In this document: one piece after another, positions 2,939 through 58,791 of the stretch
How the letters are laid out: the number at the start of each line of letters is the position of its first letter
How positions within the stretch are numbered: position 1 is the stretch's first letter
Assembly (NCBI RefSeq): GCF_037042905.1
Contig: NC_087251.1
Location: forward strand, 40,240,001-40,304,000
DNA: 64,000 nt
From: Lytechinus pictus
Lineage: Eukaryota
Direction: 5' to 3'
Program-made: the position numbers and the translations under genes
Notes under the pieces: generated by a model
Told to the model about the DNA's origin: nothing
The model's database searches: none
The model's input: the letters and a program-made list of their open reading frames with translations, nothing else

Positions 2939-3256
2939 GGTTCCATGACAATTGCTCCGCCGACATTTGCTCCGCCGACAATTGCTACGCAAAATACGAC
3001 AACTGCTCCGCCGACATTTGCTCCGGACAGTTTTTCCGCCGACACTTGCTCCGTCGACACTTGCTCCGCCGATATTTGCTCCGTCGACACTTGCTCCGCC
3101 GATATTTGCTCCGCCGACATCTGCTCCGCCGATATTTGCTCCGCCGACAATTGCTCCGCCGATAATTGCTCCGCCGACAACTGCTCCGATTATACGATAA
3201 TTGCTCCGCAACAATTGCTCCGCCGTCAATTGCTCTGCCGTCATGTGCTCAGATAA
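2939..3256 (+). repeat. 15-bp tandem array (TTGCTCCGCCGACAH)n; left arm of a putative foldback element
   Basis: Direct reading; produces spurious SAEQx/APPTx ORFs. Confidence 0.9.
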
Positions 3257-6070: not shown

Positions 6071-8398
6071 CAGGGACCGCGGAACTTTTTTTTCCAAAAC
6101 CGTGTACAAAAACGTAAAAATTATCATATGATTGTGGTTTTTAGCATGGTCAGCCCCTGTTGCACCCACAAATGTAATAACGCCCACAAATGTAATAACA
6201 CTTTACCCACAAATGTAATAACGCCCACAAATGTAATAACACTTTACCCACAAATGTAATAATTTTTGATCGCCCACAAATGTAATAATGACTTTACCCA
6301 CAAATGTAATAAATTTGAAGGGATTTTTGGACAATCCGTTCTAAACTAAAATCCTATAGTGATGCGTTCATATAGCACAAAATTGCAAAGTTTTTTTTCC
6401 AGACCCGATTAAATAAAAAATTATAACATAATTTAAAGTTTTTTTTCCAGACCCGGTTGTTTAAAAAATTACAACATAAGTCCAAAGTCTTTTTTCCAGA
6501 CCCAGTTATTAAAAAAATTATAATATAAGTCCAAACTAAGATACCATAATGATATTCCAGTGGAATAAAAATAAAAATCGAGCTTAGTCTTTTCTCCAAA
6601 CCCTGTTATTCGAAAATTATAAATAACAATACAACAACAACAAAAACAGTATAAAGACCCCACAATCTTATTAATGCTGGATAACATAGACATATAGCAT
6701 AGTCTTTCAGCCAGACCCAGTTATTTTTTTTTCAAAATAACACTAACAGTAATAATAAGAACATTTCAAATCTAAGACCAAACAATCCTTCAACCTAAGA
6801 ACATGTTTTAAAAAGAGGTTTAGAGCATTGTCTTTATTCCAGACCTAATCATAAAAAAAATACCCCCCCAAAAAAAATCTTCTAACATAAGACTTATGTT
6901 AGAAGATTTTTTTTTGGTATTTTATTTTTTTTTCTTAGACCATATCATATTCTCATTCTTCTGGAATAACACGAGTTTTAAAACATACTCTTTTCTCCAG
7001 ACCCGGTTATTTAAAAAAATGAATTTAAAAAACTTCAACAGTTCAAATCTAAGACCAATCTTCAAAAGTTACACCCTTACTGGGTGTAACTGGGTGTAAA
7101 AATGTGTATTTACCCCGCATCCAGTTTTTTTTTATAAATAATACTAAGACCCCTACAAAACATTGTAATAATGCATGGGTAAAGCAAACATCCTTTCTCC
7201 AGACTTGGTTATTATTTGAAAAAAAAGATAGTTTTTACAAATATTCTAAAACGAATACCCAATAATCTAATTACCGTGGAATAACATGAAGATCGATTGT
7301 AGACTTTCCTCCAGACACAGTTATTTCAAGAATAAAAAAGCAATAAAACCCAACCCCAACAACGAATCTAAAAACCAACAATCATCCAAATTAAGACCAC
7401 ATGTTTAGAGCGATGTCTTTATTCCAGACCCAGTCATTTAAAAAATAATTCAAACAGTCTTAAAAACACAAGACTTTGTCATATTCTTATTCCTGTGGAA
7501 TAACACGAGTATTATGCTTAGTCTTTCGTCTAGACCCGGTTATTTAAAAAATAAAGAAATATTGAAAAAAAAAATAAGACCAAATTTCAAAATTAAGCCC
7601 AGTTAAAATGCTTGGGTTTAGAGTGTTGTCTGTACTCCACACCCAGTTCTCTGAAAAATACAAATTAAGCGAAACTTTAATCTTAAAACTTAATCCCAGC
7701 ATCTTCTAAACTATTAAAACCCTGTGATAACGCATACCACGAAAACGACAAAATTAATCATCGGCGTAAACGTTCATATCTGAATGATACGCACCTTAAA
7801 ACCCAAGTTAACAATAACAACGTTATTCTACATCAATGGTATTGTGGGGTCTTTGTTGATATAGTTTGTTTGTTTTTATTGTTTCTTACAATTTCCTATT
7901 TTGAAATAACTGAGTCTGGAGCAAAGACTACACCAAAGGTCTTTGTTTTGTTGTTTTAGTTTGGACTTATATTATAATTTTCGAAGCAACCGGATCTGGA
8001 AAAAAGACTTTGAACTTATATTATAATTATTGAAACAACCGGGTCTGGAAGAAAAGACTTTGGATTATATTATACTTTCTTTAATAACCGGGTCTGGAAA
8101 AAAAAAGACTTTGTACTTTTGTGCTTTATGAACGTATTACTATAGGATTTCAGTTTAGAACGGATTCGCCAAAAATCCCTTCAAGTTAACTTTATTACAT
8201 TTGTGGGTAAAGTCATTATTACATTTGTGGGCGATCAAAATTATTACATTTGTGGGTAAAGTGTTATTACATTTGTGGGCGTTATTACATTTGTGGGTAA
8301 AGTGTTATTACATTTGTGGGCGTTATTACATTTGTGGGCGATTATTACATTTGTGGGTGTAACAGCCCCCCATTTTGAAAACCGTTCCGCGGCCCCTG
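6071..8398. mobile_element. CAGGGGCC-family MITE split by a 2.2-kb insertion
   Basis: Halves 6071-6157 and 8365-8398 rejoin to match 1190-1350; TSD TGTAT (6066-6070, 8399-8403). Confidence 0.85.
6158..8364. mobile_element. Non-autonomous foldback DNA transposon with TGT...ACA ends and long modular TIRs
   Basis: TGTTGCACCCACAAATGTAAT / ATTACATTTGTGGGTGTAACA; 17-22-bp terminal tandem units, then a mirrored unique segment and ccagacccggttatt subrepeats; TSD GCCCC (6153-6157, 8365-8369). Confidence 0.88.
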
Positions 8399-8534: not shown

Positions 8535-8790
8535 TTATCGGAGCAATGTACGGCGGAGCCATTTTCGGCGGAGAAGATGTCGGCGGAGCAAATATTGATT
8601 TTGGCGGAGCAATTTTCGGCGGAGCAGATGTCGGTGGAGCAAATATCCGCGGAGCAATTGTCGTATAATCGGAGCAGATGTCGGCGGAGCAAATATCGGC
8701 GGAGCAAGTGTCGACGGAGCAACTGTCGGCGGAGCAACTGTCCGGAGCAATTGTCGGCGGAGCAGATGTCGGCGGAGCAATTGTCGGGTC
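8535..8790 (-). repeat. Same 15-bp array inverted; right arm of the putative foldback element
   Basis: ttgtcggcggagcaa units, reverse complement of 2939-3256. Confidence 0.9.
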
Positions 8791-9614
8791 AGAACAATAG
8801 ATGCGAGCGCGAAGCGCGAGCTGAACATTTTGAGATTTCGATCTGGAAAAATTGACATTTTAATGGACGTTTTTCATAAAGAACAAGATATCCAACAAAA
8901 GATTATTGCAAATCGAAGCGGGAGTTCTTTTGAGGTTTAGAACTGAAAACGTGTCATTCTATTCACCTATTTAATCATCAAAAGTATGGGTTTTTGCCAC
9001 AGAAATGATGCGAGCGCGAAGCGTGAGCTAAATTTTTTTTTATTCCAATCTGAGCACGATTTTAAATGAAATATGAGTTGTGTATGTCAATCTCGCTTGC
9101 TGATTTCTGTGAAACATTACAATCTTATTTTATTTTTTGCACATGCGGAATTATTGGGGGGGGGGGGGGCAAAACGATATGCTTACCCCCCAATATTTTC
9201 ATTGGTGGGGCGATCGCCCCCCCCCCCCAGAATCGACGCCTCTGCAGACCACAAAAAAGGAATGGAAAAAGAAAAAAGTGAAATATATTATTCTCCGGAT
9301 ATCATGTCAAAATCTATCACAAAATTGGATTTTTGTATTAAAAATGTCAAAATTTTTGCTCGCTCGCAACTTTTTTATTAAAAGATTAATTCTGCCCGAC
9401 TATCTAAAAGTAGTCGCCTCATTACACATACATGTACACATACACATACCCACACATGTACTGTATCTAAGCAATAGCTTAAATACAGCTTAGGCATGGC
9501 GGTTTGTCATTGTTCAAAACCCACCTTCACCCGACAAAATGATTTTAATTTTTTGTGTCGAAAATCTGTTGACCTGACGGTCAATCGGATCGGAATCGCC
9601 CTTGCCACTCACCC

Positions 9615-9679
9615 GTCTCTAGTGGTTAAGGCATTGGTGTTCAAAGCCGGGGGCCTAGGTTAGATTACCGGCAGAGGCA
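9615..9679 (+). pseudogene. Degenerate copy of the TCA tRNA-like module
   Basis: 7-nt deletion in the 5' part, mutated B box, same GTTCAAA loop. Confidence 0.65.
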
Positions 9680-10003
9680 TTTTTCATCATCACCAATTTT
9701 TCCAAAGATGCAGATAGCTCTGGGGAACCTTGATTTAAGCTACGCCTACCATTCATCTCTTCATTTATTTCTTTCACAACATATGGAGTTTCCAAAGCTG
9801 TTGTACCTGTATAATTTCTCACCTTTGTATAATTTGTCCCATAAATGTTCTGTTTCTAAGCAATAGCTTTGATCCAACTGAGGTATGGCGGCTTGTCATT
9901 GTTCAAAACTCACCTACATCCGACAAAGGAAAGTTAATTTGTGGCGTCGAAAATCTGTTTATCTGACGGTCAATCGAGTCGGGGTCGCCCTAGCCACTAA
10001 CCC

Positions 10004-10075
10004 GTCTCTGTGGTCTAGTGGTTAAGGCACCAGCGTTCAAAGCTGGGGGCCCGGGTTCGATTCCTGGCAGAGACA
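10004..10075 (+). tRNA. tRNA-like gene or pseudogene, 72 nt, anticodon TCA (Glu-like body)
   Basis: Acceptor GTCTCTG/CAGAGAC; D stem GTCT/AGGC; anticodon stem CCAGC/GCTGG with loop GTTCAAA; T stem CCGGG/CCTGG with loop TTCGATT; A and B boxes; T6 immediately downstream. Confidence 0.65.
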
Positions 10076-10416
10076 TTTTTTCGGCATTGCCCATTTTTCC
10101 AAAAAAAGGGCAGATAGCTCTGGGGAACCTTGATTTAAGCTACGCATACCATTGTTCTCTTCATCAATTTCTTTCACAAAATATAAAATAAAAGAGTTGC
10201 CAAAGCTGTTGTACATGTATAATTTCTCACATTTGTATACTTTCCCCTATACGTGTACTGTATCAAAGCAATATAGCTTTGATCCAGCTAAGGCATGGCG
10301 GCTTGTCATTGTTCGAAACCCACCTACACCCGACAAAGGAAATTATAATTGGTATAGTGTCGAAGATCTGTCTATCTGACGGTCAATCGGGTCGGGGTCG
10401 CCCTAGCCACTAACCC

Positions 10417-10486
10417 GTCTCTGTGGTCTAGTGGTTAAGGCACCAGCGTTCAAAGCTGGGGCCCGGTTCGATTCCTGGCAGAGTCA
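10417..10486 (+). pseudogene. Slightly damaged copy of the TCA tRNA-like module
   Basis: Two G deletions and one acceptor-stem mismatch relative to 10004-10075. Confidence 0.7.
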
Positions 10487-10576
10487 TTTTTTCGGCATCA
10501 CAATTTTTTTCTAAAGGGAAGATAGCTCTTGTTCTTTTCATTCATTTCTTTCACAACATATTTAAGTTTATGAGTT

Positions 10577-10880
10577 TTTGATTTGATTTGAATTTATTTT
10601 TCTTCTACATAACAATATAATATAACATAGATGTAACAAACATATATTGACAATAAATCAGGTATAAATCATTTAGCATAAAATTAATAGCAGAAGATGG
10701 ATTGCCATAGTAAGCAAAAAAATGCTTGAAAAATATGACAAACCGAAACATATTTTAACCATATAATCATATTATGAGCAGAATGGACAATAACAAATTA
10801 TTAAAGTATCAATTAAGTATAATATAAAAAAGAGAAGAACAAAATCTAACAAGCCAAAACTTGCTATAATATATATAATC
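10577..10880 (-). mobile_element. LINE 3'-UTR/tail fragment inserted into tandem unit 3
   Basis: Reverse-strand AATAAA plus (AAATC)n tail; host unit resumes at ~10883. Confidence 0.6.
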
Positions 10881-11053
10881 AAGTTGCATATGTATAATTT
10901 CTCACCTTTGTATAATTTGTCCCATATATGTAGGCTACTGTTTCTAAGCAGTAGCTTTGATCCAGCTGAGGCATGGCGGCTTGTCATTGTTCAAAACTCA
11001 CCTACACCCGACAAAGGAAATTTGATTGGTGGTATCGAAAATCTGTTTATTTA

Positions 11054-12595
11054 AATGCCACCGCACACATTGCGACTGTTCGCGATCCGATTTTGTAACA
11101 AATCGCATTTTGCTCATTTTCTAAAATGAGAATGGAACATTTCATTTTATTTGAGGTTAAAATTAATTGAAAGAATGCTAATATCACAATTTTGAAAGGT
11201 TGCAAGCCTTTATTTTGGAGTAAAGGCCAAATCAGTTTCAAATCGTAGCCAATCGTACGACTGCTATGACGTCATTAATATGACGTCATTAATGCTATGA
11301 CGTCATTAATATGACGTCATTAATGACGTCATTCTACCATATATTAATTATGGAATTATTGCCTGGGGATGTGCAATACAAACACAACTAAATAGAATAT
11401 TACTTCTCCAGAAAAAAGCTCTAAGAATAATTTTTCAAACACACTTTAGATCACATACTGATATCTTATTTTTTGAAAATAACATTCTTAAAGTAAGTGA
11501 CATATATCTTTTCGAACTTAGTCAATTTATGTTCAAATTAAGCAAGGACGACCTTCCCGCCATTTTCTCTAATATGTTCCGTAAAAATACATCCGTACAC
11601 TGCTACCCAACAAGGCAACGACAATATTATCATCTCCCTTTAACAAGAACTTTATTTGCAAAGAATTCATTTGTCTTCTCTGGGCCTGCCTACTGGAACT
11701 CTCTGCCTCAAGATTTCAAAGAATCCCCCAATGTAAATATTTTTAAACGCAAACTGAAAAAAATGTTAATTCTGCAATACTCGTCGCAAACAGGTCAAGC
11801 TGAATAACTAATTTAATTATACTCGACTTTTGTGTATATGCGTATTATATGCGCTCATATTATATACATAGTCATGTATATTATTCGTTTAATTATTTTC
11901 TTCTTAAAATTGCAATTAGCCAAAGTACCTGCTCCTGCTGCCCGCCTTCTTCTTTCTTTCTACTTAGTGTACTGCACTCCTCTGTCCCTCCTGTCTTCCC
12001 CCTCACCTCCCCCTCTCTTATAATATTGTAAAACGTAATTTTTTCTCACACGATCCATCAGTTACGTTTTTGTCAAGTGCACAAAAATTGTTTGTATTTA
12101 TTTTTAAACAAAATTATTATTAAGACCCAATATTTATTTGTTGTAATTTTGTAATGTAACTAAGATAGGGGCTTGTCTCTTGTACAAGCTTTGCCTTTTT
12201 TCGGCAAGTCCCTCCGTTTTACTTTTAAAATACAAATGTCATTTGAGATATCTTTATTTACTGAATTGTGTTCCTTAAATCTATGATTATGTTATATATA
12301 TTATATTTTGTCTTGTAGTATTTTCGACCTTGTTATGTTATGTTTATCATATTATGTACAATTGTGAAACGGAAATAAATAAATCAAATCAAATCAAATC
12401 ATTACGACTAGATATTAAATTTGCTTTTATTCTAAGAAGGATGATAGCATATTCACAGATTTGAACATAGGTATTCGTACGATGATTTCGAACACTACAC
12501 AGTAAGATATTCCAAGTCTCAATATTAGCATCAAATTCTACTACGTTTTATTCCAAAATTGAGTCGCAGACCAATCGTAAGGTATGCGGTCGCCT
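11054..12595. mobile_element. PIF/Harbinger-like MITE inserted into tandem unit 4, itself carrying a LINE
   Basis: Imperfect TIRs ATGCCACCGCACACATTGCGAC / ATCGTAAGGTATGCGGTCGCCT; TAA/TTA flanks. Confidence 0.65.
11331..12400 (+). mobile_element. 5'-truncated CR1-group (Crack/L2-like) LINE
   Basis: Open frame 11331-11807 ILPYINYGIIAWG...LQKKALRII...WNSLP...FKRKLK (ORF2 C-terminus), 3' UTR, AATAAA and (AAATC)n tail. Confidence 0.88.
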
Positions 12596-12635
12596 TTACG
12601 GTCAATCGGGTCGGGGTCGCCCTTGCCACTAACCC

Positions 12636-12700
12636 GTCTCTGTGGTCTACAGTGTAGTGGTTAAGGCACTGGCGTTCAAAGCTGTGGGCCCGGGTTAGAT
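12636..12700 (+). pseudogene. Degenerate, 3'-truncated copy of the tRNA-like module
   Basis: Insertion in the D arm; truncated in the T loop by another element. Confidence 0.6.
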
Positions 12701-14841
12701 CGGTACCGATTACCGACGTCTGACGACCATGAGTCATGGTTGAACTTTTCATTATCCTCAGCATCATTTTCTTTCGTCATACCCAGTGGCAGATCCAGCT
12801 TTCATGAATAGGAGGGTGGGACGGAAAAATATGTTTATATGTTTTTAAATATTTTCATTTCCCTGTCGCATCCGCCACGCCTCTTTTTTAAGGGATTAGT
12901 CCTAACTAAATTTTAATTCTTAGAAACATGATAAGGTATTTTATGTGGTCTGATCTGGAAGAAGAAGAATATATATTATCGCGCGAAGCGCGAGCTATTT
13001 TTTGTTATATTTTTTATATCAAGACCTGGAAAGAAAAAAATTTGAGCAGCTTTTGTAATCATCAACTAGATGCGTATCTAACTAAACGATCAATTCGAGC
13101 GCGAAGCGCGAGCTGAAATTTGTAATACTTGCTTGCAAAGGGACCATTTAAGAGTGATTTATTAACAGAATACATATCTTACTAATTCAAAAATTCGAGC
13201 GCAAAGTGCGAGCTGTTTTTTTTTATAATTCGATCTGAATAATCGATTGTAACCATAAAGAGGATGGATGCGTTAATCAAATAATTGATGCGAGCACAAA
13301 GCGCGAGCTAAAATTTTTTATTTTTGACCAGAAAACTCAACATTCTAAGAATCTTTTTTTTTAATAACTTTTTATTCAAATCAACTGAAGCTTTTAATCA
13401 ACTGATCTGAAAAAGTACATGTACATGACTGTTTGCAGTGAATCGTGAATAGAATATAATTATCACCAATCAAATAGAGCGAGAGCGAAGCGCGAGTGGA
13501 AAAATCTTGAGATATTCGATCTGAAAACTGGACTGGTTGAGCAGGTCTTTGATAAAGAATACACTGATTTTTGCAGATTTTATAAATCAGGACATTCGAA
13601 GCTATGTAACTATGAAGAGGGTGTGCATAAATCTAAGCAATTGATGCGAGCGCGAAGCGCGATCTGAACATTTTTAATTCAAGATCTGACATTTGGACAT
13701 TGTAAACACTTTTTGTAATTATGAATAATATGCATAAATAACTAACCAATACATGCTAAGGCGAGCTGAAAGTTTTAATCAACTGATCTGTAAAAGCACC
13801 TATTAATGACTGTGTGCAGTGACTCATGAATATGGACTTTTTTTATAAAGAAAACAGTCAGTAAACATGCAGGTGAGCTGAGAGTAACCATCAAGAGGGT
13901 GGGCATAGAACTAAGTAACTTTTGCAAGCGTGAAGCGCGACCTGAAAATTTGTTGTTTTACAACATAAAAATTTGATAATTTTTGCAATCATGAATACGA
14001 TGGGTATCTAATAAAACAAGTAATGCAAGCATGAAGCGTGAGCTGGGGTTTTTCTGTAGCTTTAAGACTTGAAATCGGGCATATCTAATGCAGTTTTTGT
14101 AATCATGAAAAGGAAAGCTATCAATGAATGATGCGTGGCGAAGCGCGAGCTGGAAATGTTTGATATTTTTACACGTTTTTATATTAAGAAAACATTCGGA
14201 TTCTGCATCTGTAATAGACAGGCTGTCTATCCCAATCAGCATAATTCGAGCGCGAAGCGTGAGCTGAAATAATATAAATAAATAATTTACTGACCCGAAA
14301 GGGATCCTTTTAAGCACTGTCCAACATGAAGGAAAATTGTAGGAGGATATGGATTTCACTATAAATGCTGCGAGCGCGAAGCGCGAGCTGAATTTTTTTG
14401 GGGGGGACTTGGACCTTAAACCAGAACATACTTATCACTGTCGGTACAGAAGCGCGAGCTGAAAACCTTTGATTTTACAGCCTGAAAACTGGACATTCTA
14501 CACGCTTTTTGCAATCATGAACACGATGGGTATATCTAATCAAACAAAGACCTACTTTTTTAAAAAAATATTTAGACTTAAAATCGGACATTCCATGCAG
14601 TTTTTGTAATCACGAAAAGGAAGGGTATCGATGAATAATGTGAGCTAAAGCCAAATTTTTTCCTACTTAGATTTTTTTTTCTATTTCCCTTCTCTCCCTT
14701 TCCTCTTTCTCCCTTCCTTTTCCCCCTCCCGCCGTTTTCTTCATTTTCCCCGACGGCAGCGCAGATTTACCGACGATATCCAGAGTAGTGGGAAGGGGGG
14801 GTACGTTGCACCCCCACCTCCCCCCTTTAGCGACGGCCCTG
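12699..14841 (+). mobile_element. Composite repeat with an internal ~115-120-bp GCGAGCGCGAAGCGCGAGCTG tandem array
   Basis: Motif recurs from 12980 to 14650; CAGTGGCAGATCCAGC at 12785; leader shared with 28024-28130. Confidence 0.75.
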
Positions 14842-20684: not shown

Positions 20685-22030
20685 TTCAAATCAATTCAAT
20701 TCAATTCTTTATTCCATTTCCATTCAAACATAATACAAAGTAATATAAAGTAATACAAATCAAAATACAATTTTACAGACGAGCATTCTTACTTCTTAAA
20801 AAAAAAAAAAAAAAACAGTATAGTATTGAGCATTAATCGAAATGAGGGGGGTCCACTAAAAAGCAAAGCTTGTAAAGTGTGGATCCCCCTTGGAAATGAA
20901 GAAAATATAATCAACTTATTCATATATGCGTTTATATACAGGAAAGAAAAAAGAGAAGGAACAAAAAGGTCGAAATCATATTGATGTAAGCATAATTACA
21001 AAACAAGTGCAAAGTTATTCACACAAAGAGGTCTTCGCTGTGAAGGATATGTTGCGCAATAGACAGAAGAAAAAGCAGAAAGAGAGAGGGAATGACAAGA
21101 CATAGAAGACAAGACAAAACAAGAGACAGGACAGTACAAGACAAGATAATAAGTAAAAAAAAATAAAAGGAGGAAAAGTCAGAATGGGGAAGGGCTGACC
21201 ACAAACCAGCTTGATCTGGTGAAGTAACAAAAAATGATATAACTGGACAATAAAAGATGAAAAAAGATAAAACAATAAAAATGAAAAATGTAAGGATGAT
21301 AATCAAGATAATGAAGTCTTAGTTCCGTTGCGAAGAATTATAAGAATGAAGCAGGATAAGTTTGAGTTTACGTTTGAATGAATTTAAAGAGACACTGTCT
21401 TTAACATTATTAGATAGGGAGTTCCAGAATTTAGGACCGTTGAATAGGAATGTATTTTTGGCCAGTAAAGTTCTGTAAAGTGGTGTATGAAGTTCGTCAG
21501 AGTGTCTCAGTGGGGTAGTTATGATAAAATTGATATTTAAGGAACATGGCATCAAAAATATGGGGAAGTGCATTATTATTATAACTATGCATGAAGTGCC
21601 CTAACTGTACTAAATACAGGTCTTTGACTTTTTAACAGTTTACTTTCTAGAAAAAGTGGGTCCGTATGAGAGCGGAAAGCTGTACTATAAATAATACGAA
21701 GTGCTTTCTTTTGCAAAAGTAACAATTTATCTAATAAATATTGATGGGTATTACCCCAAATAAGAATCCCGTAGTTTAAACAAGGCAAAATTAAGGATGA
21801 GTAAAGCATGATTAATGATGTGGAGGGAATGCAAAATTTTAGCATATTAATAATACCTATATTTCGTGAAATTATTTTGGATATATTTCCAATATGATTT
21901 TTCCAAGAAAGGTTACTGTCAACTGTTATTCCTAGAAATTTGGTGTACGTTACCATTTTTAATGCGGTATTATCAAACATAATGTTCATCGGTAACTTGT
22001 ATATGGAATTTCTAAATAGCATGTAATAAC
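20685..22030 (-). mobile_element. 5'-truncated, frameshifted CR1-group LINE in intron 1
   Basis: KFLGITVDSNLSWKNHI...YGILIWG...LQKKALRII...WNSL...FKRKLK across broken frames; (ATTGA)n tail. Confidence 0.88.
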
Positions 22031-24111
22031 ATGATCTGAAAACACTGTACATATTTTTTAGTCACTGCAGAAGATATATAAATACTCGATTTGATTAAAA
22101 CAAAACAACAACAACAAAAAACGATGTACTGTTTTCACTATTCCTATATAGCATTATTTTGATCACCCCTTTGATTTACAAATAAAAGTACTTGATAAAA
22201 TTGCTAACCCGACGACTTCCGAGATATATGTAATAACCGATCAAGTCGTTCAATTTAGGAGCTTTTCACCTTGTTATTGTGTTCAAAACAAGCCACAAGG
22301 CCCCTTCAATCATGAAAAAAGGAGCTTCCAACGTGAAAGTAATTGAATTTGTCATCTTTTCGCTTACGAAGTCGTCGTATTTCTTCAATCATTGAGATGG
22401 GACTATGAATAGAGACAGCGGGGTTGATTTGATTCATTCAACCGTTACGATCAGAGCATTCATGTTGTCACTATATATCCTCTTCCTCAAGATCTCTCCT
22501 TGTATCGCAATCGTCGTCAGGTAAATGCACTTTCCTTGTCGATCTCATATGGGCATACGAAGATAACATTCCAGAAGGGGACTATAGTGACAAGATACAA
22601 CCAGCAATGGATCAGACTGTCACTTCTAATCCAACTCTAATCACGTGACCAAGTCAATTTAAATTTTGCAAAACAACACGGGAAATTGAAGACAATGTAA
22701 TTCTTGAAGAAAAAAAATCGGACTGCTCGTCTGTTAGAGTTTACACACACGGTGAAATGTTTCCCGATACTTCGTGACTTAAAGTCACTGAGATCAATAT
22801 TGTTTTAAACACAAAAACAAAATAAAAAATAAAAACAAACAGCAAAACAAATGGACTATGCTTTAAAAAAAAAAAAAAAGAGCGGAGAGTATACCGAGAA
22901 GACCTACATTTACAAAGAATTAGTTTTGACTGACAGTAAATATAATAATAGTAATAATGATAATAACATTAACAACAACAATAATAATAATAATGAGGAG
23001 GAGGATAATACTAATAATGATAATAATAATAGTATAAATCTAAGTGACTGGTGGAAAAGAGTCGATGAAGAACATGATACCATTTAAAGAATAATGGGTA
23101 TAAAGGGGTGGGGTATAAGAGAGATAAAGCGAGGGTCTGGGACCCCCAGTATACTCCATAGTGCCTATCTTGACAATTTCACACCACTTATCTCTATCCC
23201 GCGGAAATTGCCACTTCAACCTGTCAGAATGATCTACTTCTATCTATCTTCCTAAGATGCGAACTGATTCTATATTTTCAGACGCACGATAAGGAAGCAG
23301 AGTAATCTCCATATGTTTACACACAGACAAATTGTCAACAAATCGCTATTTTTGGCGGTAACATCTTGTGTGAAAATCGAGCAAGCGTGTCCTACTAGTG
23401 AATTTGAACAGATAAAAAAAAAATCATTATTGGAACCAATAAGCTGAGAGAAACCACGTTTGATGAAAATAAGCCTACATGATTATAATAGTGAATTTGG
23501 CAATATTTATACCCACTTATAGACAAACACCATAATACGCCAATACCATGCAGACGGTATACCCATTCCATACAGCACGCTATCACAATAAACTAATATA
23601 AAGGAGTTACAACAGTCAACATTTATGAGACATTTATGAAATTAATTTTTAAATCCATTGTCCGATCATTGCTCTAAGCCTGACGTCCTCAGCTATTTAG
23701 ATGAGATTGTACTATTCGCACGGTTTTCCAAGAGCACATCACGTGACCAATAGCAGGCGATACTATATCATGTATGTGGGAAGGCGCCAAATGAAGATGA
23801 CATTCCAGCCCCGTATTGTTATGTTCTCATTTTCCTCCCTTCGCCTCAGGTTAAAATAAAATCAAGCGAGGGCAGTGTATTGAGACACTAATGTCAGTTC
23901 GCGGGATATAGACACCACCTCGAGCACATTGCTAACCGACTTTTAGCTCTACTCTTCCCATATTTTACATAAAGTCATGCCCCAATTTAGTTGTGATCGA
24001 TGCAAATTTATGTATCTATCATCCAGGATAATGGATAAGATGTAAAATCTGTTTGGTGATGTTAAGGGATTTTGCCGCACAGCGAAATGTATTGGAATAA
24101 TAATAATAAGT

Positions 24112-24400
24112 GGAGCGTTGTGGCCCAGTGGATTAGTCTTCTGACTCTAAAACAGAGGGTCGTGGGTTCGAATCCCAGCCATGGCGTAATTTCCTTCAGC
24201 AAGAAATTTATCCACATTGTGCTACACTCAACCCAGGTGAGGTGAATGGGTACCCGGCAGGACTGATTCCTTGAATGCATGAGCGCTGAAAGGCAGCTCG
24301 AGCTAAAATCGGGGTAATAATAATAATAACAACGCGCCTCGGAATAGAATATTTCTAGACAGATGGCGCTATATAAATGCCTATTATTATTATTATTATT
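24112..24400 (+). mobile_element. tRNA-derived SINE
   Basis: A box TGGCCCAGTGG, B box GGTTCGAATCC, body, gcgctatataaatg and (TAT)n tail. Confidence 0.85.
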
Positions 24401-27099: not shown

Positions 27100-28130
27100 C
27101 TGTCCGCGCTCGCATTATGTTTTTTTTGTAAAAAATTAATACACACCTTGTTCAATTACAGATGCAGAAACTGATATTGTTTTAATGTAAAAACATGTCA
27201 AAAATGTTCAGTTTTCAAGTTAAAATATCCAAAATTCCCAGTTCGCGCTTCGCGCTCGATCTATTTGATTAGTGAGGATGAGTATTCTTTTCATGAGTCA
27301 CTGCAAATGGTTAATTAACATGTCCTTTTTCAGAACAGTTATTTAATAGTATCGGCTCACGCTCGCATGAATTGTAATATACGCATATCATTCATGCAAA
27401 AAGTGCTTAGCATTTCAAGTTTTCTGGTCGGAAATCAAAATTTTCAGCTCGCGCTACGCGCTTGCATCAACTGTTTTGTTAATACATCCATCCTCTTCGT
27501 GGTTACAATCTAGTTTTCAGGTCGAAATATAACATTTTTCAGCTAGCGATTCGCGCTCGCATTTTCAGATTGGTGAGAAATTTAATATTTCATGGTTCAC
27601 TGCGAACAGTCTTCAACAGGTCTTTTTGCTGGCCAGTATATTAACAATTTCAGCTCACCATTTGCGCTCGCTCTATTTGATTAGAGAGAAATTTATTTTA
27701 TTTATGACTCACTGCAAATAGTTAATCAACATGTCCTCAGAACATTTAATTAAAAGTTTTAGCTCGCGCTAGCATGAATTGCTTAATTATATACACATAT
27801 TATTTATACAAAAAGTGCTTAGAATATCCAGTTTTCTGGTCGGAATCACAATTTTCGGCTCGCGCTTCGCGTTCGCAACAATTGTTTGGTTAATGTATAA
27901 ATCCTCAATTTTTTTGTAATTTATCCATCCTCTCCATGGATACAATCGAGTTTTCAGGTTGAAATATAACATTTTTCAGCTAGCAGCGCTTCGCGCTCGC
28001 ATTTTTGGATTCGTGAGATATTTATGAAAGCTGGAACTGCTACTGAGCATGGCGAAAGAAAATGTGACTAAGGAAAATGTAGAACAAGATAAAGATTCAT
28101 GGTCGCGGGACGTCGGTAATCGATACTGAT
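27100..28130 (-). mobile_element. Inverted copy of the GCGAGCGCGAAGCGCGAG-array element
   Basis: ctcgcgcttcgcgctcgc units; 28024-28130 is the reverse-complement homologue of 12699-12805. Confidence 0.75.
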
Positions 28131-30025
28131 ATTTGTCGGTGATCAGGGCCTCCACCCCCCCCTACTGGAAAAGGCATAGCGACGCCCCTGATTGGGGCTG
28201 CAAAAGTAAATGATAATTTTCAAGCGTTATTGCAACAAAATATTTGCAGTTAAAGTGTATAGAGAAAGGTGATAATAACATGTTGTGGTAGGTAGTGTCC
28301 ACCGGAAGCCCAATTCATTGAAATTTATTGACTACCCTGGGTAAATAAGATTCATTATTATTATTAGTAGTAGCAGTAGTAGTACTAATTGCAACTCTCT
28401 GGCAACCAAACAATTTTCTTTTAAATTCAAATTTCTAAATACTATGAATAAATATTAATCCTGATTCAGATAGCCCAGTTTGATAATACTCATAATCATT
28501 TATGTTCTTCAGTGCGCCTCATCATTGCTGATAATCAATAAATTCCCCCTTCAATAATGCTTCCGGCATTCCTCAAGAAATGGTGATTAAAATTTCTTAT
28601 TCTATCCCGACATCCTAGGGTAATTGAGCTCCTTTACTTTGTTACTGAGGATTCTCAAACAAAACTTTCAACATGATTGATAAAATATATCATTTTCCTC
28701 TCTTCGTTATATCACATCACCCGTTTATTTCACCTCTATAGTCAAATAACTCCCCTGTGAATTCAATTCAGTACGCGACATCAGAATGTATCCATAGTTC
28801 TAAATGAAACGAATAAAAATACTCAGAACTGAGATCACAATACTTTAAAGACAAACTTTAGACAAAAAACACCGCAACCTCCGGCGAGAAAGAGAAGTGT
28901 TTTTTTGTTGTTGAGAAGTTTGATTAAGGGATTAACCTTCTATCTCTTCTGTCGCGAAACAGTTACAAGCAAGTTATTTTTAGTTATTCTTGCATGTCTG
29001 GTCAGACAAGAAGTATAATGCTAAGTCATTTTGAAAAAAAAAAGACTCTGCTGATACAGGAATCCGTTTTGGCAGAGACCTCAATTCTTAAGATTCTGGT
29101 GTAAAACTATCCAGAAAAAGATAATAGCGAAGATGTTTCGTCAGACCATTAAAAAAAGATAATGAAACATTATTGCAAATATTACAGGAAATTATACCTT
29201 AAGTCATAGGCGTTACTCCGAACATGAGCTTGGGGGACACAACACCTCGTCGATTTACAGTTACTTTACCTCATCATATCAGTAGTGTAATGAGCCAATA
29301 ATTTTGTGGGGCCAGATACGGCGTATTGGGGAAAATCTCTAAAATCTGCGAGCGAGCGGATCGAGCGAACAAAAATTTTGACCTTCTTAATACAAAAATC
29401 TACTTTTGTGATAGATTTTGACATGATATTCAGCAAATTATATTATATTCCACCTTTTTTCTTTCATTTCCTTTCCCTTTCTCCTTTTTTCTTTGTTGTG
29501 AAAATTTTGGGGGTCAAGACCACCAACCCCCCGACCGAACGCCAGTGAACAACAGTTATGTGGCAAATGAAGTCGTCATTTCGAAAAAGAGACATTAATC
29601 TTGTTACGTGCAGTTTCTAACCTTGTCCTTGTACTAATTTTACCATACGAGAGAGAGAGAGATGAGTTGAACATGTTGATATCTCTCTCATTCTGTTTCT
29701 ATAACATGTCTAATGTTTCTTTTCTCTCTACGTCAACTTCTATCTGTCCATATGCTAGTTATTGATGCATGGTAGACCGGGGGTAGACCTCTATATCTCA
29801 TGCGTATGATGTTTGATTTGAGAGTTCTGCCGAATGCTAATATCATAATGGGGGAAATTGGAACTGACATTTCCTTCAAAACGTCACTGATTCGGGTCGA
29901 TCGATCCATCATATTGACTGGAATCCGAGTAAAAACATCGTCGAATATGGTTCGCTCTGTTAAATGCAACATAGTATCGACTTTCATTGCGGAATTCCAA
30001 CAACATAAAAAAAATAGATGATATA

Positions 30026-40107: not shown

Positions 40108-42909
40108 GAGTGCCTCTACCTCGGGGCCTCGGTCGGTCGCCTAACCGACTCGTCGATGGAGCCCGGTGCCATCATTCCAAGTGGAGTTAGGGGGTTAGAA
40201 ACCCAGGGCGCTTTGTAATTGACCGTGAAACGGATGAAAGGCTGGCAAAACAAATCAATGTTAAATAAATCTTGGTATACTCCTCTAAAGTAGATGTAGT
40301 GAAGCACCCCTAAACGATGCTGAAATCTGATCTTCGCAAAATCCAATAAGGTCGCCAAAATATGCAAATTACCCATGAAAATCATAAAATTGCCCGCACA
40401 TTGGCTATAAAATTCATTTAATTGTGGTGCAGCAGTGAAATTTTCTCTGAAAAAATGATTTTCGACAAAATATTTATTTTCTTGATATTCAAAATGGCCG
40501 CCAAAGACCCCTGTATACTCATCATCATTATGTACAATATGAATGGGGAAAACTAATTTTCACGTAAGTGAGCACTCAAATGCAAGTAATTGTGATCTTT
40601 GACTGAAGTAATGAATGAAAACATGATCGCTAATGAAATGTATCATTTGGTATGTCATGTAATAAATGATGTATTTTTATATTCCAAATGCCACCAAACG
40701 CTGACTAACAGTATTACTACAATGTTAATGGGGACATTAAAAATATCACAAGAGTGAGTACTAAAATGCAAATTGTACAGATAACGAGTGGAGTACTAAT
40801 CAAAAAACATATTTTTTAACGAAATACAATATTTAATATTCAATGTATGTGATAAATGCTGTATTTTGAAATTCAAAATGGCCGCCATAGGCCCTATATT
40901 TACCTGTACAATGCGAATGGAGAAACTAATTTTCACAAGAGCAAGTACCATAAAATGCATGTAAATGTGATCTACGCGAGTAAAATATTGACTGAAACAC
41001 GTTTTCTAGCGCAACATATCATTTCTTTTGCCATGCATGAGATAAATGCTGTATTGTGAAATTCAAAGTGGCCCCCATAGACCCTAAGAGTAGTTGTAAG
41101 AATTGGGATTTGCTTGACTATGAAATCAATATATAATCCTCTTGTTTGAGTAAAATATTACTTGAAAACATGATTTTTATGAAATATAGCATTTCTTCTG
41201 CCATGTAGGTGATAAATACTTGACATAAAATAGCCTCTATACAAGCCCTAACTAAACTATATATATATATATATAGGGAATCTAACTTTCACAAGAGTGA
41301 GAATCATAAAATGCATGTTACTGTGATGTATGAGAAAAACTATTGTCTTAAACATGATATCTAATTAAATACATCACATATTGGAAATGAAGGTGCGTGG
41401 GCCTAATAGATGCTGTACTTTGAATTTCAAAGTGGCTGCCATTAGCTAAAAAAGTATTATGTACATTGTAACTAGGGACATATAAATACAGAATTTGGCT
41501 TTGCTTTACTATAAATATTGCATATAATTTTGATGTAAGAGTGAAATATTGTATAAAACCATGGTTTCTAACAAGATATATTATATCTTGTGTAATTAAG
41601 GTGATAAATGCTGTATTTTGAAACTGAAAATGGCTGCCATAGACCCTTATCGTATTATGGACAATTTGAATGGGGATAAGTTTCACAAAAGGGCATATGG
41701 CGGCCATTTTGAAATATAGCATTTATCTCCTAAATTACATAAGATATGATATATTTAGTTAGAAATAATGTTTTTAGACAATATTTCACTCATACAACAC
41801 CATTTAGTCAGGCAAAGCCAAAATCTGTTAAAATCCTTTCCTCATTCACGTTGTACATAATAAGCAGGTAAGGGTTTGTAGCGGCCATTTTGACTTTCAA
41901 AATATAGTATTCATCACCTATAGAAGAAACGATATATCTTGTTAGAAATTATGCTATCAGACAATATTTTACTCACAGATCACAATTACGTGCATTTATG
42001 GTGCTCACTCCTGTGAAAATTGGTTTCCCAGTCCGCATTGTACATAATACAGTCAATGTCTATGGCGGCCATTTTGAATGTCAAAATACAGTATTTAACA
42101 CAAACTTGAAACCTGAAAGATATATTTCGTTACAAATTATGTGGGTTTCTTTTTTTTAAACAGGATCCCATTTATTTATCACAAGTACATGTACATGCAT
42201 TTTAGTGCTCACTCTTTTCTTTGGTCCTCTTTCTCATTGTATATAATACTGTTTGGGTCTTTGGTGACCATTTTGAATATTCAAATTCAGCATTTATCAC
42301 AAAAATCGCATATTAGATAATATATTTTGTTAACAATTATGTTTGAGTCAGTATTCCACTCGTTTATCTTAATAATATGCATTTTAGTGCTCACTCTTGT
42401 GATTTTTTTTGCCCCCATTGCCATTGTACATCATACTGTTTGGGCCAATGGCGGCTATTTTGAATATCAAAATACAGCAATTTTCCCATACATGACATAA
42501 TAAATTATATACGTTTGTAATGATGATTTTCATACTTTACTTCATTTATAGATCACAATTACTTGTAATTAAGTGCTCATAATTTTTTTGTGAAAAATCA
42601 GTTTTCCCTTTTGACATTGTACATAATAGAGTATACAGTGGTCTATGGCGGCCATTTTGAATATCAAGAAAATAAATATTTTGTCAAAAATCATTTTTTT
42701 TTCAGAGAGTATTTCAGTCCTGCCACACAATTTCATGCATTTTATATAGCCAATGTGATGGAAATCTGACATGTATGCTGAATATCATAAATTTAACCAA
42801 GATCACTTCCATTTTGTAGCGAAACCTTTTTTTTTTGCTTGTCAAATTTTATCCAGCACCTCCTGTGAAAGAAAAATCGTTTCCATGGCCCTCCATGGTA
42901 CTGGCACTC
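40108..42909. mobile_element. Large foldback element with ~190-bp internal subunits
   Basis: 40395-41690 mirrored by 41690-42757; CAAAATGGCCGCC motif in each subunit; outer GAGTGCCTCTACC / GGTACTGGCACTC. Confidence 0.75.
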
Positions 42910-55748: not shown

Positions 55749-55995
55749 AATAATAATAATAATATTTATTTTTATTTACCCAGGGTAGCCACTTCAGTTA
55801 TAGGAAACTGCTCTACCAGCGGGCCCTGCATAACATAATGTTATTATTACCCTTCTCCAATCTAAATGCTGAGCGCCTAGCAAGAAGGCAGAAGGTCCCA
55901 TTTTTATAAGTCTTTGGTATGACTCGGCCGAGGATCGAACTCACGACCTCCCGTTCATGAGGCGGACGCTCTACCACTGAGCCACCATGCCCGGT
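55749..55995 (-). mobile_element. tRNA-derived SINE (Met-like head)
   Basis: Reverse strand TGGCTCAGTGG...CTCATGA...GAGTTCGATCC; tail ctaccctgggtaaataa(TAT)n, also seen at ~28330. Confidence 0.85.
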
Positions 55996-57567
55996 ATAAC
56001 ATGTAAATTCTAAATGTTTTCCATGACGATCAGATAGTTTATAGCATTAAAGCCAATGTAATTGTTGAAGCACATTCATTTTAGATGTGTATCGCTAAAT
56101 CTTTATTTTCACAAGGGGTTTCTCTGAAACGAAAGAACCATGATGAGAGGAGGAGGGACATGAGAAGTGATAGAGGGAGGAGACATAACGAGAGAGAAGT
56201 AGGGAAAGAGAGGGGGACGTGGGTGGGTGGGGCGAAACATAACTCAACTGAAAAACAAAACAAAATTGGGAAAAAGGGATAAGGATGCAACCAATGATTA
56301 TCATTTTCCCTTTATACGCTATGACATGATGACCATCATAAATTAAGAAAAACGTGACTTGGCATCATGGTGAAAAACAGGTATAACGCATGAAGAGCTC
56401 ACATCTTATAGACTTCTTCAATTTCTCCATGGCATCATTAAGAGGTAAAAATATATAGAGTGAAACGGGTAGGGTGATGAAAAGTACTGGCAGGGGCAAG
56501 AAAATGGGTAAGACAGGGATAAGTGGATTTGAGATGGACAAGGAAATTGGTCTTCGGTAGGATTCCACCACCTGCTAATAGGTGCTAAGAAAGTGCATTC
56601 AAGCTTTCAACCTAAAGCTCTTCCTATTGAAAAGCCGAGTGTGATGACATACATGACATAAGGGAGCGTGATAAGTATATAGATTCATCACCACTTAAGT
56701 TATCATTTCATCGGATGCGAAATTTTCGATGAGTACTTTGTTTGACAGACAACATCATGTTTTAAATTGATATGTGAAGAAGATCGACGACTGACGAAAG
56801 TGGGGTAGAATGAACAGAAAAACAGAATGCCAACTTGAAAACTTTAACCGATCCCGCAGCTAGATAGCAGGAGTTTGAATTATTCTGACACATTTCCCTA
56901 TATTTGTCTTTGAAGTTATTTATTACCCCCTTATACATCAAAGCTTCATCACGAAAGGAACATTTGAATGTAATAAAACTAAACAAGGGAGACGGTACTG
57001 AATTAGAAGTGGTACGCAAACAACAAACGTGCAAAAAACAATATGATTCATTTGTGTATTTAAAAAAAAACGGGTTCGTAGAAATTATTTAGTTGCATAC
57101 AATGATCTTTTTCAGGATAACAAACATCGCCCAGAATGTTCAAATTTTAGGACAAAATACATAAAATAAAATAAAAATTAGCTCGCGCTTCGCATTATAC
57201 AAATAAGGATTATGATATTAAATACTTATGTTGATTTAAAAGCTAGGAAGTGACTATTAGGACTACCCCTTCAAAGAAACAAACACGAATCATCTTCGAG
57301 CAGCCGATCGGCGAAACTATGGCTGAAAAAATTTCTGCCCCCCCCCCCTATTGGCGAAGGCTGGATCCGCCCCTGTTGGTCTATTTTTTTATAGTTATAT
57401 CAGGTATACCAACCCATCCATGTAACTAGACAAAACACCAAATTGATTGTGTAATAATTCTTACTCTTGTATACATGTATTTTGAAAAATTGACTATATA
57501 AAAATCCTTTGGAGGACAAAAAGAAAAATCATACATCAAATGGTATATGTGTAACGTTTGATCTTAC

Positions 57568-58791
57568 CTTTACAATGTTAGGGTGGCGAAGTTGGTGAAG
57601 AAGTGCAGTCTCTTTCAGGAGTTTGTAGTTGGCCAGTTGGATGCAGTCTCGTTTCGCCATCCCCCTATCCAAGCAAGCCGTAACATCATTGCCTTCCGTC
57701 CATACCGACTTAACGGCCACCCATCTACCATCCCTCAGCTCCACCCTCTCAACCCGTTTGGTGTAGCCTGATCCTACCAGCTCTCGGCTATTTATATGGG
57801 CTAAGTCCTCGCATCCGAGGTACGGCTCGTCCAAGTTCAAAGCCGCATTGGTCTCCGCCTCGATGGACGGCTGGTTGAGGGTGGTGGCCGCAGCAACAGG
57901 GTTGGTAGAAATTAAATCGGATACTGATAATCTTTTTTGTGAATTATCCCAAGATTGATCATGTTGATAACCTAGAACATTTTTCAAGTCACTCGATTTT
58001 TCAAAGTGTTTGTCTAGGCTTCCTTTGGTCTCATTTTTAGCTTTTTTAGACTTGTGGTGATGGCCTGGTGCTAAATGTTTTCTCATTGATAGGGTTGAAG
58101 CAGACTGATGAAAAATTATTTCTTTATTATCATCATCATGATACGACCTTTTCTTGTTTTCGTTGTGTGGTGTTCTAAGCAACGCCATGGCATCTGGCAT
58201 ATCTGCCCTTTTCATTGATCTACTTTTTGGTGTATTTCTTGAAATCGCTCTCGTCTTATTACTTTTACTGGCCTTGACATCAGGTATAGTTTGATCGTCT
58301 CGAGTTATAGCACCGCTGCTGCCGCTCTTGCTGTGTCCATGGTGTCTACCAGGTCCATGGCTGGTCCGAGCATCCATCAAACGGCGCTTGAGGCGGTGCT
58401 CATTGCCCTCCACTCTTCCCTCGTCAAGCAGATGCTGGTGGTGGTGGTGATGATGCCGAGAGTCCAGCTCACGTCCACCATCCATGCCCTTCTTTCTTGC
58501 ATTCATTGTTTCTAATCTTACTTTAATTCGCTCCTGATGGTGTAAAAGTTCCATTTCCAGCTTCGCTGCCATTTCCAATAACTCTTCCTCTCGTGATCTC
58601 AATCCTTGTTTTTCCTCAAGGATTTCTCGATTTTGAATGACTGTAATATCGCGTCTATCATCGTCATCGTCGTCGTAAACCGCCACAATCATAAGAAAAA
58701 GGAATGTAAATATTAAAGGCATCCATAAATAATTAGGCATCGAGATGACAAAGCGATTCCGTTTCCTACGAATAAAGCAAAAATTCCTCAT
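57568..58791 (-). CDS. PKDCC: PKDCC/VLK-like extracellular tyrosine kinase, coding exon 1 (408 codons: signal anchor, long stem, kinase N-lobe)
   Basis: ORF MRNF...; basic N-terminus then hydrophobic segment; LGCEDL, VGSGYTKRV (Gly loop), VAVK, YKLLKE, LRHPNIVK match PKDCC-family motifs; GTAAG donor at 57567-57563, phase 0. Confidence 0.92.

Follow-up and report, generated by a model that had tools for sequence, protein, structure and literature searches.

A tRNA-containing tandem repeat of Lytechinus sea urchins with a retrozyme-like layout and a predicted masking arm

The tandem array and its units

Within a stretch of 64,000 nucleotides of the Lytechinus pictus genome (assembly GCF_037042905.1, contig NC_087251.1, positions 40,240,001–40,304,000 of the forward strand; the window in what follows, with positions counted from its first letter) lies a tandem array of a repeat of about 400 bases, the units of which carry a transfer RNA (tRNA)-like module with the anticodon TCA. 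A first-pass annotation, made from the letters alone, had picked out the array and its module. It had not recognized an upstream antisense arm, which is predicted by folding models to mask the cloverleaf in long RNA.

The first-pass annotation described four tandem units. Units 1–3 (9454–9785, 9786–10195 and 10196–10561, all on the plus strand) are contiguous, with spacings of 389 and 413 bases, whereas unit 4 is set apart by about 320 foreign bases, is split by a 1.55 kb insertion (11052–12598) and is cut short, its tRNA part ending at 12700. Unit 1 begins part-way into the unit and is the most decayed copy (84% identity to unit 2), with a tRNA-like remnant at about 9615–9679. Unit 2, which served as the reference for comparison with public reads, contains a motif resembling a second B box (9901–9910; seen in the sequence and in RNA reads, and judged against the B-box consensus), the antisense arm (9928–10002), the tRNA-like module (10004–10075) and a T6 tract resembling an RNA polymerase III (Pol III) terminator (10076–10081), with a T5 tract next at 10094–10098. 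In unit 3 the antisense arm occupies 10339–10415 and the tRNA-like copy 10417–10486; the latter has lost two bases and has a broken acceptor pair. The 5' part of unit 4 (10883–11050, plus strand) is 91% identical to unit 2, while its 3' part (12598–12700, plus strand) holds a tRNA-like copy with a seven-base insertion in the D arm and a T loop that is truncated by another repeat. An AATAAA motif (10187–10192) is located in the A-rich linker between units and is also present in the commonest linker variants of the RNA, and no cleavage pile-up follows it among the listed ends of the RNA reads.

The AT-rich foreign segment between units 3 and 4 (10570–10882, minus strand) is likely to be the 3' end of a long interspersed nuclear element (LINE), because its end matches the simple-repeat tail at 12374–12398. 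The insertion that splits unit 4 is flanked in an alignment by imperfect terminal inverted repeats (11052–11120 and 12521–12598), contains an open reading frame (ORF) fragment (11310–11807) with a 3' tail and is likely to be a truncated LINE. The units are mosaic: over the 5' half unit 2 has letters in common with unit 4, and over the tRNA half with unit 3. Since the units are 84–94% identical to unit 2, mosaic and interrupted by insertions, we regard the array as old and recombined.

The tRNA-like module

The module of unit 2 folds into a 72 nt cloverleaf of the 7/5 type with a short variable loop, A and B boxes and a T-tract terminator. ARAGORN calls TCA-anticodon tRNAs at 10004–10075 and 10417–10486, and the Rfam model RF00005 (cut-off 29 bits) scores them at 62 and 40.3 bits, respectively, all pairs being intact in the first match. 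No tRNA was called in any of 300 composition-matched resamples of 9400–12800. The copy in unit 1 is called only with a lowered ARAGORN threshold, which also yields about 25 junk calls in the window. The TCA loop is nevertheless retained in all four units (loops at 9639, 10035, 10448 and 12674); in unit 2 it spans 10035–10041, with TCA at tRNA positions 34–36 (10037–10039), and the T6 tract follows the module directly, all as first annotated. G32, which had been flagged as atypical, is likewise found in all four units, together with U33 and A37. In working tRNAs position 32 is nearly always a pyrimidine, followed by U33 and a purine at position 37.

In a thermodynamic fold of the free 72-mer (z score −2.1) the acceptor and anticodon stems form with a probability of about 1, the T stem with 0.6 and the D stem with 0.12. 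Parts of the module may resemble Glu-like, Ser/Leu-like and Gly-like tRNAs and point to no single parent tRNA. In the Rfam scan a match to mascRNA reached 25.6 bits, under its cut-off of 42.5. In one contig from public run X14 the 3' half of the unit is joined to a different tRNA-like 5' half.

Two familiar classes were considered for the module and set aside, as the first-pass annotation had already done. Eukaryotic selenocysteine tRNA (tRNA-Sec) is described as 90–101 nt long with a very long variable arm, a 9/4 fold (a 13 bp acceptor plus T stem), a 6 bp D stem and G73 (PMC5330540, in the text available to us). The module has 72 nt, a 7/5 fold, a 4 bp D stem, a short variable loop and A as the discriminator base (the last tRNA base, 73), and shares with tRNA-Sec only the UCA anticodon. 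No tRNA-Sec model was listed in the Rfam scans of the window, in which the tool drops overlapping matches of the same clan. A tRNA-derived short interspersed nuclear element (SINE), in the available descriptions, consists of a 5' tRNA head, a body, a LINE-derived region and a tail, with Pol III reading through. Here, the tRNA lies in the middle of the unit rather than at its 5' head, T6 and T5 tracts stand immediately 3' of it and the units are arranged head to tail.

The antisense arm and the predicted rod

The approximately 75 bases upstream of the tRNA-like module match, imperfectly and in reverse complement, the tRNA, the T tract and the sequence downstream, with a gap at the anticodon arm. 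In unit 2 the arm is complementary to 10012–10100 and the 68 aligned pairs comprise 51 Watson–Crick, nine G·U, two A·C and six other pairs. Its score was reached by two of 1000 shuffled arms for unit 2 and by none of 1000 for unit 3. Whole units fold better than shuffled sequences (z scores of −4.5 for unit 3 and −3.4 for the other unit folded), and the resulting structure is a rod rather than a cloverleaf: −73.9 kcal/mol is predicted for the rod compared with −54.1 kcal/mol when the cloverleaf is forced. The plus strand of units 2 and 3 folds 15–20 kcal/mol better than the minus strand.

According to these models, the rod captures the D arm as soon as the latter is made. Four forms were modelled: one unit alone, two in tandem, a circle and an RNA of unit length with the tRNA at its start. 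In all of them the acceptor, D and T pairs have a predicted probability of 0.0, while the anticodon stem pairs are predicted at 0.98 or above. The anticodon hairpin is thus expected in the cloverleaf and the rod alike (pair probability 0.97–1.0). The first bases of the tRNA would be located in the end loop of the rod, where the ends of a unit-long RNA would meet. A transcript that begins with the tRNA and ends at T6 is predicted to retain its acceptor stem and its anticodon stem. When the majority letters of the family (see below) are substituted, six of the seven rod pairs that change become Watson–Crick. The ratio of G·U to A·C pairs in the rod is 9:2 in the window copy (p = 0.03) and 6:1 in the majority sequence (p = 0.06). 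In plant retrozyme and viroid circles, ribozymes are described as being blocked by complementary sequence (Cervera and de la Pena, PMC7229834, in the text available to us), and by analogy this may be the closest precedent for masking that we have met.

The repeat family in public sequencing reads

Unit 2 was compared with the reads or contigs of four of 24 listed public runs at a likeness threshold of 80%. Family contigs number 5425 in DNA run X2, 103 in X3 and 18 in X14, from three coded organisms, and the family is a high-copy, non-coding repeat of Lytechinus sea urchins. Crude bounds place its copy number between about 500 and 30,000, summed contig depth not being a copy number. No exact unit pattern was found in metagenome contigs, viral contigs or prokaryote genomes, and a literature search (which did not extend to Repbase or Dfam) found no paper on an approximately 400-base Lytechinus family.

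The statements on differences and polymorphism that follow cover 40 of the 99 entries that list how the family departs from the window copy. Two of these fall within the tRNA, at 10032 and 10065. Both are CpG sites, in keeping with the CpG decay that had been suspected earlier, and at each the family letter accounts for more than 99% in both X24 and X2. The family keeps both stem pairs, as G·U at 10032 and G–C at 10065. No variant appears in the anticodon loop. A single X14 contig that spans 9946–10103 carries eight differences, which equals the number of majority differences listed there and so leaves none for the loop. TCA and G32 are therefore the majority state of the family and not a product of decay in the window copy, and the suspected repeat family with a TCA loop and paired stems does exist. 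One X3 contig reads TCC in the anticodon loop.

It had also been asked whether the cloverleaf is better conserved than its flanks. None of the 21 polymorphic places falls within the tRNA (chance 0.016), nor do any of the 13 seen in RNA alone (chance 0.08), and none lies in 9946–10087, a region picked after the data had been seen. This suggests that few parts of the unit vary as little as the tRNA region does. The comparison of the window copy with the majority, with two differences in 72 positions of the tRNA and 29 in 339 outside it, is not significant (p = 0.14).

Expression of the family

X24 is a ribosomal RNA (rRNA)-depleted, paired, stranded RNA data set, of which four runs were pooled and about 6% was read. 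Unit 2 is fitted by 90,178 of 8,710,588 reads (1.0%). The overall strand bias is 894:1, which excludes DNA as the source, and in 28 of 30 bins the first-mate depth is 14,000–43,600 on one strand and 12–61 on the other. The reads cover the whole unit; the depth dips at points of divergence in the window copy, at which loose ends carry on into family sequence. It is continuous across the 5' end of the tRNA (26,306, 28,297 and 32,077 in succession) and shows no fall at the 3' end and T6 (43,582 and then 41,557), and 6684 reads link 10174 back to 9786 across the unit-to-unit junction, with many linker variants. Sites 9882 and 9905 are each split evenly in X24 (A/G at 9905, the purine position of the second B-box-like motif) and vary in less than 2% in DNA run X2. 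Because of the many linker variants and these two sites, we conclude that several variants of the family are expressed.

On the main strand no dominant start or end is listed among the X24 reads, and the abundant RNA is a circle or a long multimer and not a tRNA-sized product. The earlier expectation of a transcript is thus borne out by family RNA, while the proposal that Pol III would stop at the end of the tRNA fails as the source of this RNA, whose reads cross T6, both tRNA ends and the unit junctions. Short RNA is lost from a library of the X24 type, in which a Pol III product of about 75 nt is neither shown nor excluded; in the same library no pile-up at mature tRNA ends and no loose CCA end is found among the loose ends listed (744 more are unlisted). 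An opposite-strand joint between 9792 and 9846, of the sort that an inverted 5' segment or tail of a Penelope-like element would leave, occurs in 63 reads and may be a library artefact.

Insertion target and ribozyme search

The 5' end of the array adjoins a decayed (TA/CA)n microsatellite (9423–9461), a likely insertion target, in which pyrimidine and purine alternate in 36 of 39 steps. Such alternation is reached at only three separate places in the window, the other two being TA repeats. In X3, two contigs run into TA repeats at 9831 and two at 10185. Head-to-tail copies and a microsatellite target, as in a non-autonomous Penelope-like element, are thus both observed here, and they point weakly to such an element.

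No hammerhead or other ribozyme is present among the 18 Rfam matches down to an E value of 10. A scan of both strands for the hammerhead core found none with stem II and closing stems in any unit, the window copies being decayed. A stretch of the form CUGA-R-G…C-R-AAAC at 9878–9909 is reminiscent of pieces of the hammerhead core and was rejected because it has no closing stems. The same stretch also resembles a second B box.

Comparison with known systems

The unit is tandem, non-coding and under 50% in G+C content, falls within a size range of 150–450 bp and gives rise to abundant RNA, as do animal non-LTR retrozymes (LTR, long terminal repeat), for which mobilization by Penelope-like elements has been proposed (PMC7229834; Li, Clavereau and Pollet 2026, bioRxiv 10.64898/2026.07.22.740005; both as far as their available text goes). 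It differs from them in that no type I hammerhead is found, a tRNA-like module with its antisense arm being present instead, and in that a circular form is putative. Naiad/Chlamys-type Penelope-like elements and their non-autonomous partners such as MRC1 share with it a (TA)n bias, the lack of a hammerhead and head-to-tail multicopy insertion (Craig 2021, PMC8557442). No tRNA module is described for them in the available text of that paper, where the sole mention of a tRNA concerns tRNA-Sec.

The amphibian tRNA repeats PolIII/TAN of newts (about 360 nt, derived from tRNA-Glu), OAX/satellite I of Xenopus and Rana/polIII are also tandem repeats, whose units are some hundreds of bases long, enclose a tRNA-like segment and have no SINE counterpart (PMC10702118, PMC12054243). 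These were compared by description, and an antisense arm, a UCA loop or a link to Penelope goes unmentioned in the available text of the two papers. Finally, the plant terminal-repeat retrotransposon in miniature (TRIM) Cassandra is a non-autonomous retroelement with an internal Pol III gene, promoter and terminator that occurs in tandem arrays and for which the role of the Pol III gene is described as open (Kalendar 2020, PMC7215508, in the text available to us), but there it is a 5S gene located in the LTRs of an LTR element. In layout and expression the unit is thus comparable to a retrozyme, and it also resembles the amphibian tRNA-containing tandem repeats.

Discussion

With modest confidence, we favour the view that the array at this locus is old and decayed and consists of a high-copy, retrozyme-like repeat that was probably mobilized by a Penelope-like element and carries a tRNA module predicted to be masked and likely to be non-decoding. 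The module would belong to a mobile element rather than be a working suppressor because, in long RNA, its antisense copy is predicted to tie up the cloverleaf by pairing with it. The proposed course would begin with the abundant, one-stranded RNA that runs through whole units and junctions with no dominant end. During synthesis the arm would pair with the D arm and then with the T arm, the acceptor and the T tract. The long rod so formed is predicted to leave the anticodon hairpin alone protruding. Such a rod may keep RNase P and RNase Z from recognizing the cloverleaf; without it, these enzymes would be expected to cleave the template at one or two points in every unit. At the DNA level the intact A and B boxes could act as a Pol III-type promoter or as a factor-binding site, and they probably also give rise to a short tRNA-like by-product that would be invisible to the X24 library. 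We infer that a Penelope-like element acts in trans on this stable RNA, whether multimeric or circular, and copies it by reverse transcription into TA repeats, which would generate head-to-tail arrays. After insertion the array would then have recombined, gained three further insertions and decayed.

Several points weigh against this reading. The mosaic units show local recombination, as in ordinary satellites. The arm of unit 1 is not significant, with 120 of 1000 shuffles reaching its score. The better pairing of the rod in the majority letters is equally expected from the neutral decay of a palindrome, and selection on the rod is not proven, since RNAalifold on the 5' halves of the four units found no compensatory change in 24 pairs. 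Masking itself is derived from energy models that ignore tertiary contacts, modifications and proteins of tRNA. The conservation figures are suggestive because the differences were seen in part and the polymorphic sites are clustered. Within the window no autonomous partner, pseudo-LTR (pLTR) homology or target duplication is seen, the 3' end of the array being lost. The evidence for expression comes from the raw reads of X24, which is from coded organism B and may not be the species of the window; the strand of the RNA is taken as plus (tRNA sense) from the usual library convention, uncalibrated on a known gene; and the X24 reads do not distinguish a circle from a long multimer.

An extension of the favoured reading, which we hold to be possible but doubtful, takes the unit RNA to be circular and has the tRNA-processing enzymes of the host make the circle, with no ribozyme involved. 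Each unit would be cut once, either within the anticodon loop that the rod exposes or, by RNase P, at base 1 of the tRNA; ligation would follow, and the arm would then lock the tRNA. The lack of dominant ends, the junction reads and the very high level are reminiscent of retrozyme circles (PMC7229834), the anticodon hairpin is the sole tRNA helix kept in every predicted fold, the first tRNA bases would sit in the end loop where the ends of a unit-long RNA come together and no hammerhead was found. The same junction reads are, however, expected from genomic tandem arrays, no cut site or end chemistry is seen, and in the synthesis of a multimer the arm precedes the tRNA, which disfavours cutting by RNase P. 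In its most specific form, in which the RNA of a Penelope parasite is cut and sealed by host tRNA enzymes at the displayed UCA hairpin while the arm locks the rest and thereby preserves the circle, the proposal is no better than tentative.

It is similarly improbable, in our estimate, that the family is an ordinary tRNA-derived satellite of the newt PolIII/TAN or Xenopus OAX type, propagated by DNA recombination and transcribed by read-through, with the arm as a functionless inverted duplication. Repeats of this kind are known (PMC10702118, PMC12054243), and the mosaic state of the four units and the lack of compensatory pairs fit it. On the other hand, 1% of reads at about 900:1 exceeds what passive read-through would be expected to give, the tRNA and arm are uniform across three coded organisms, and there are junctions with TA repeats.

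That Pol III makes from the family a genuine tRNA that is charged and reads UGA, perhaps in the codons of a partner element, is very improbable: the cloverleaf, boxes and terminator are intact, TCA is the majority state, a transcript from the tRNA start to T6 lacks the arm and could fold as a tRNA and in-frame UGA codons occur in some Naiad elements of clams and spiders (PMC8557442), but those codons are described there as being served by the selenocysteine insertion sequence (SECIS) and tRNA-Sec, a suppressor present in many copies would be expected to carry a cost, one X3 contig has TCC in the loop, no mature ends are seen (although short RNA is lost from the library), and G32 and the failure of all five tRNA-Sec features argue against a suppressor.

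Other features of the window

At 55765–55991 (minus strand) lies a SINE-like copy with a tRNA head (called Met/CAT by ARAGORN and scored at 44 bits with Rfam), a body, an AATAAA motif and a tail of (ATT)n; it has partial relatives at 28262–28372 and 24371–24398. A 427-codon open frame at 57529–58812 (minus strand) is the first exon of a gene for a PKDCC-like extracellular kinase; the 90% cluster of its protein includes a Lytechinus pictus entry and the next relative clusters with Strongylocentrotus PKDCC. The ORF fragment at 11310–11807 (plus strand) is related to another at 21585–22061 (minus strand), and both seem to resemble the C terminus of a LINE reverse transcriptase. Pfam gave no hit for any of the three window proteins searched, which included these ORF fragments.

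Inverted arrays of one 15 bp minisatellite are found 5.3 kb apart at 2947–3250 and 8539–8787. They enclose a second inverted pair (6165–6539 and 7956–8338, 89% identity), so that the elements are nested and foldback-like. Many copies of a short GC-rich, near-palindromic motif occur at 8787–9046, 12961–14499 and 27206–28025 inside a dispersed repeat of 95–350 bp, and 40389–42765 is a degenerate tandem array with a period of about 190 bp and an inverted pair of about 580 bp at its ends.

Significance of the family

The family accounts for a recurring false call of tRNA-Sec or opal suppressor in sea-urchin genomes. If its expression holds, a repeat RNA that makes up about 1% of the non-ribosomal reads in a model genus would be a cheap handle on two open questions, namely the processing of tandem precursors by hammerhead-less Penelope-like elements and their parasites, and the role of the tRNA segment in the amphibian tRNA-containing tandem repeats known since the 1980s. 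The model of a masked cloverleaf with a displayed anticodon is testable. Were a circle made by host enzymes to prove true, it would add to back-splicing and ribozymes a third way in which circular RNA arises in animals, and would be a ribozyme-free counterpart of the retrozymes.

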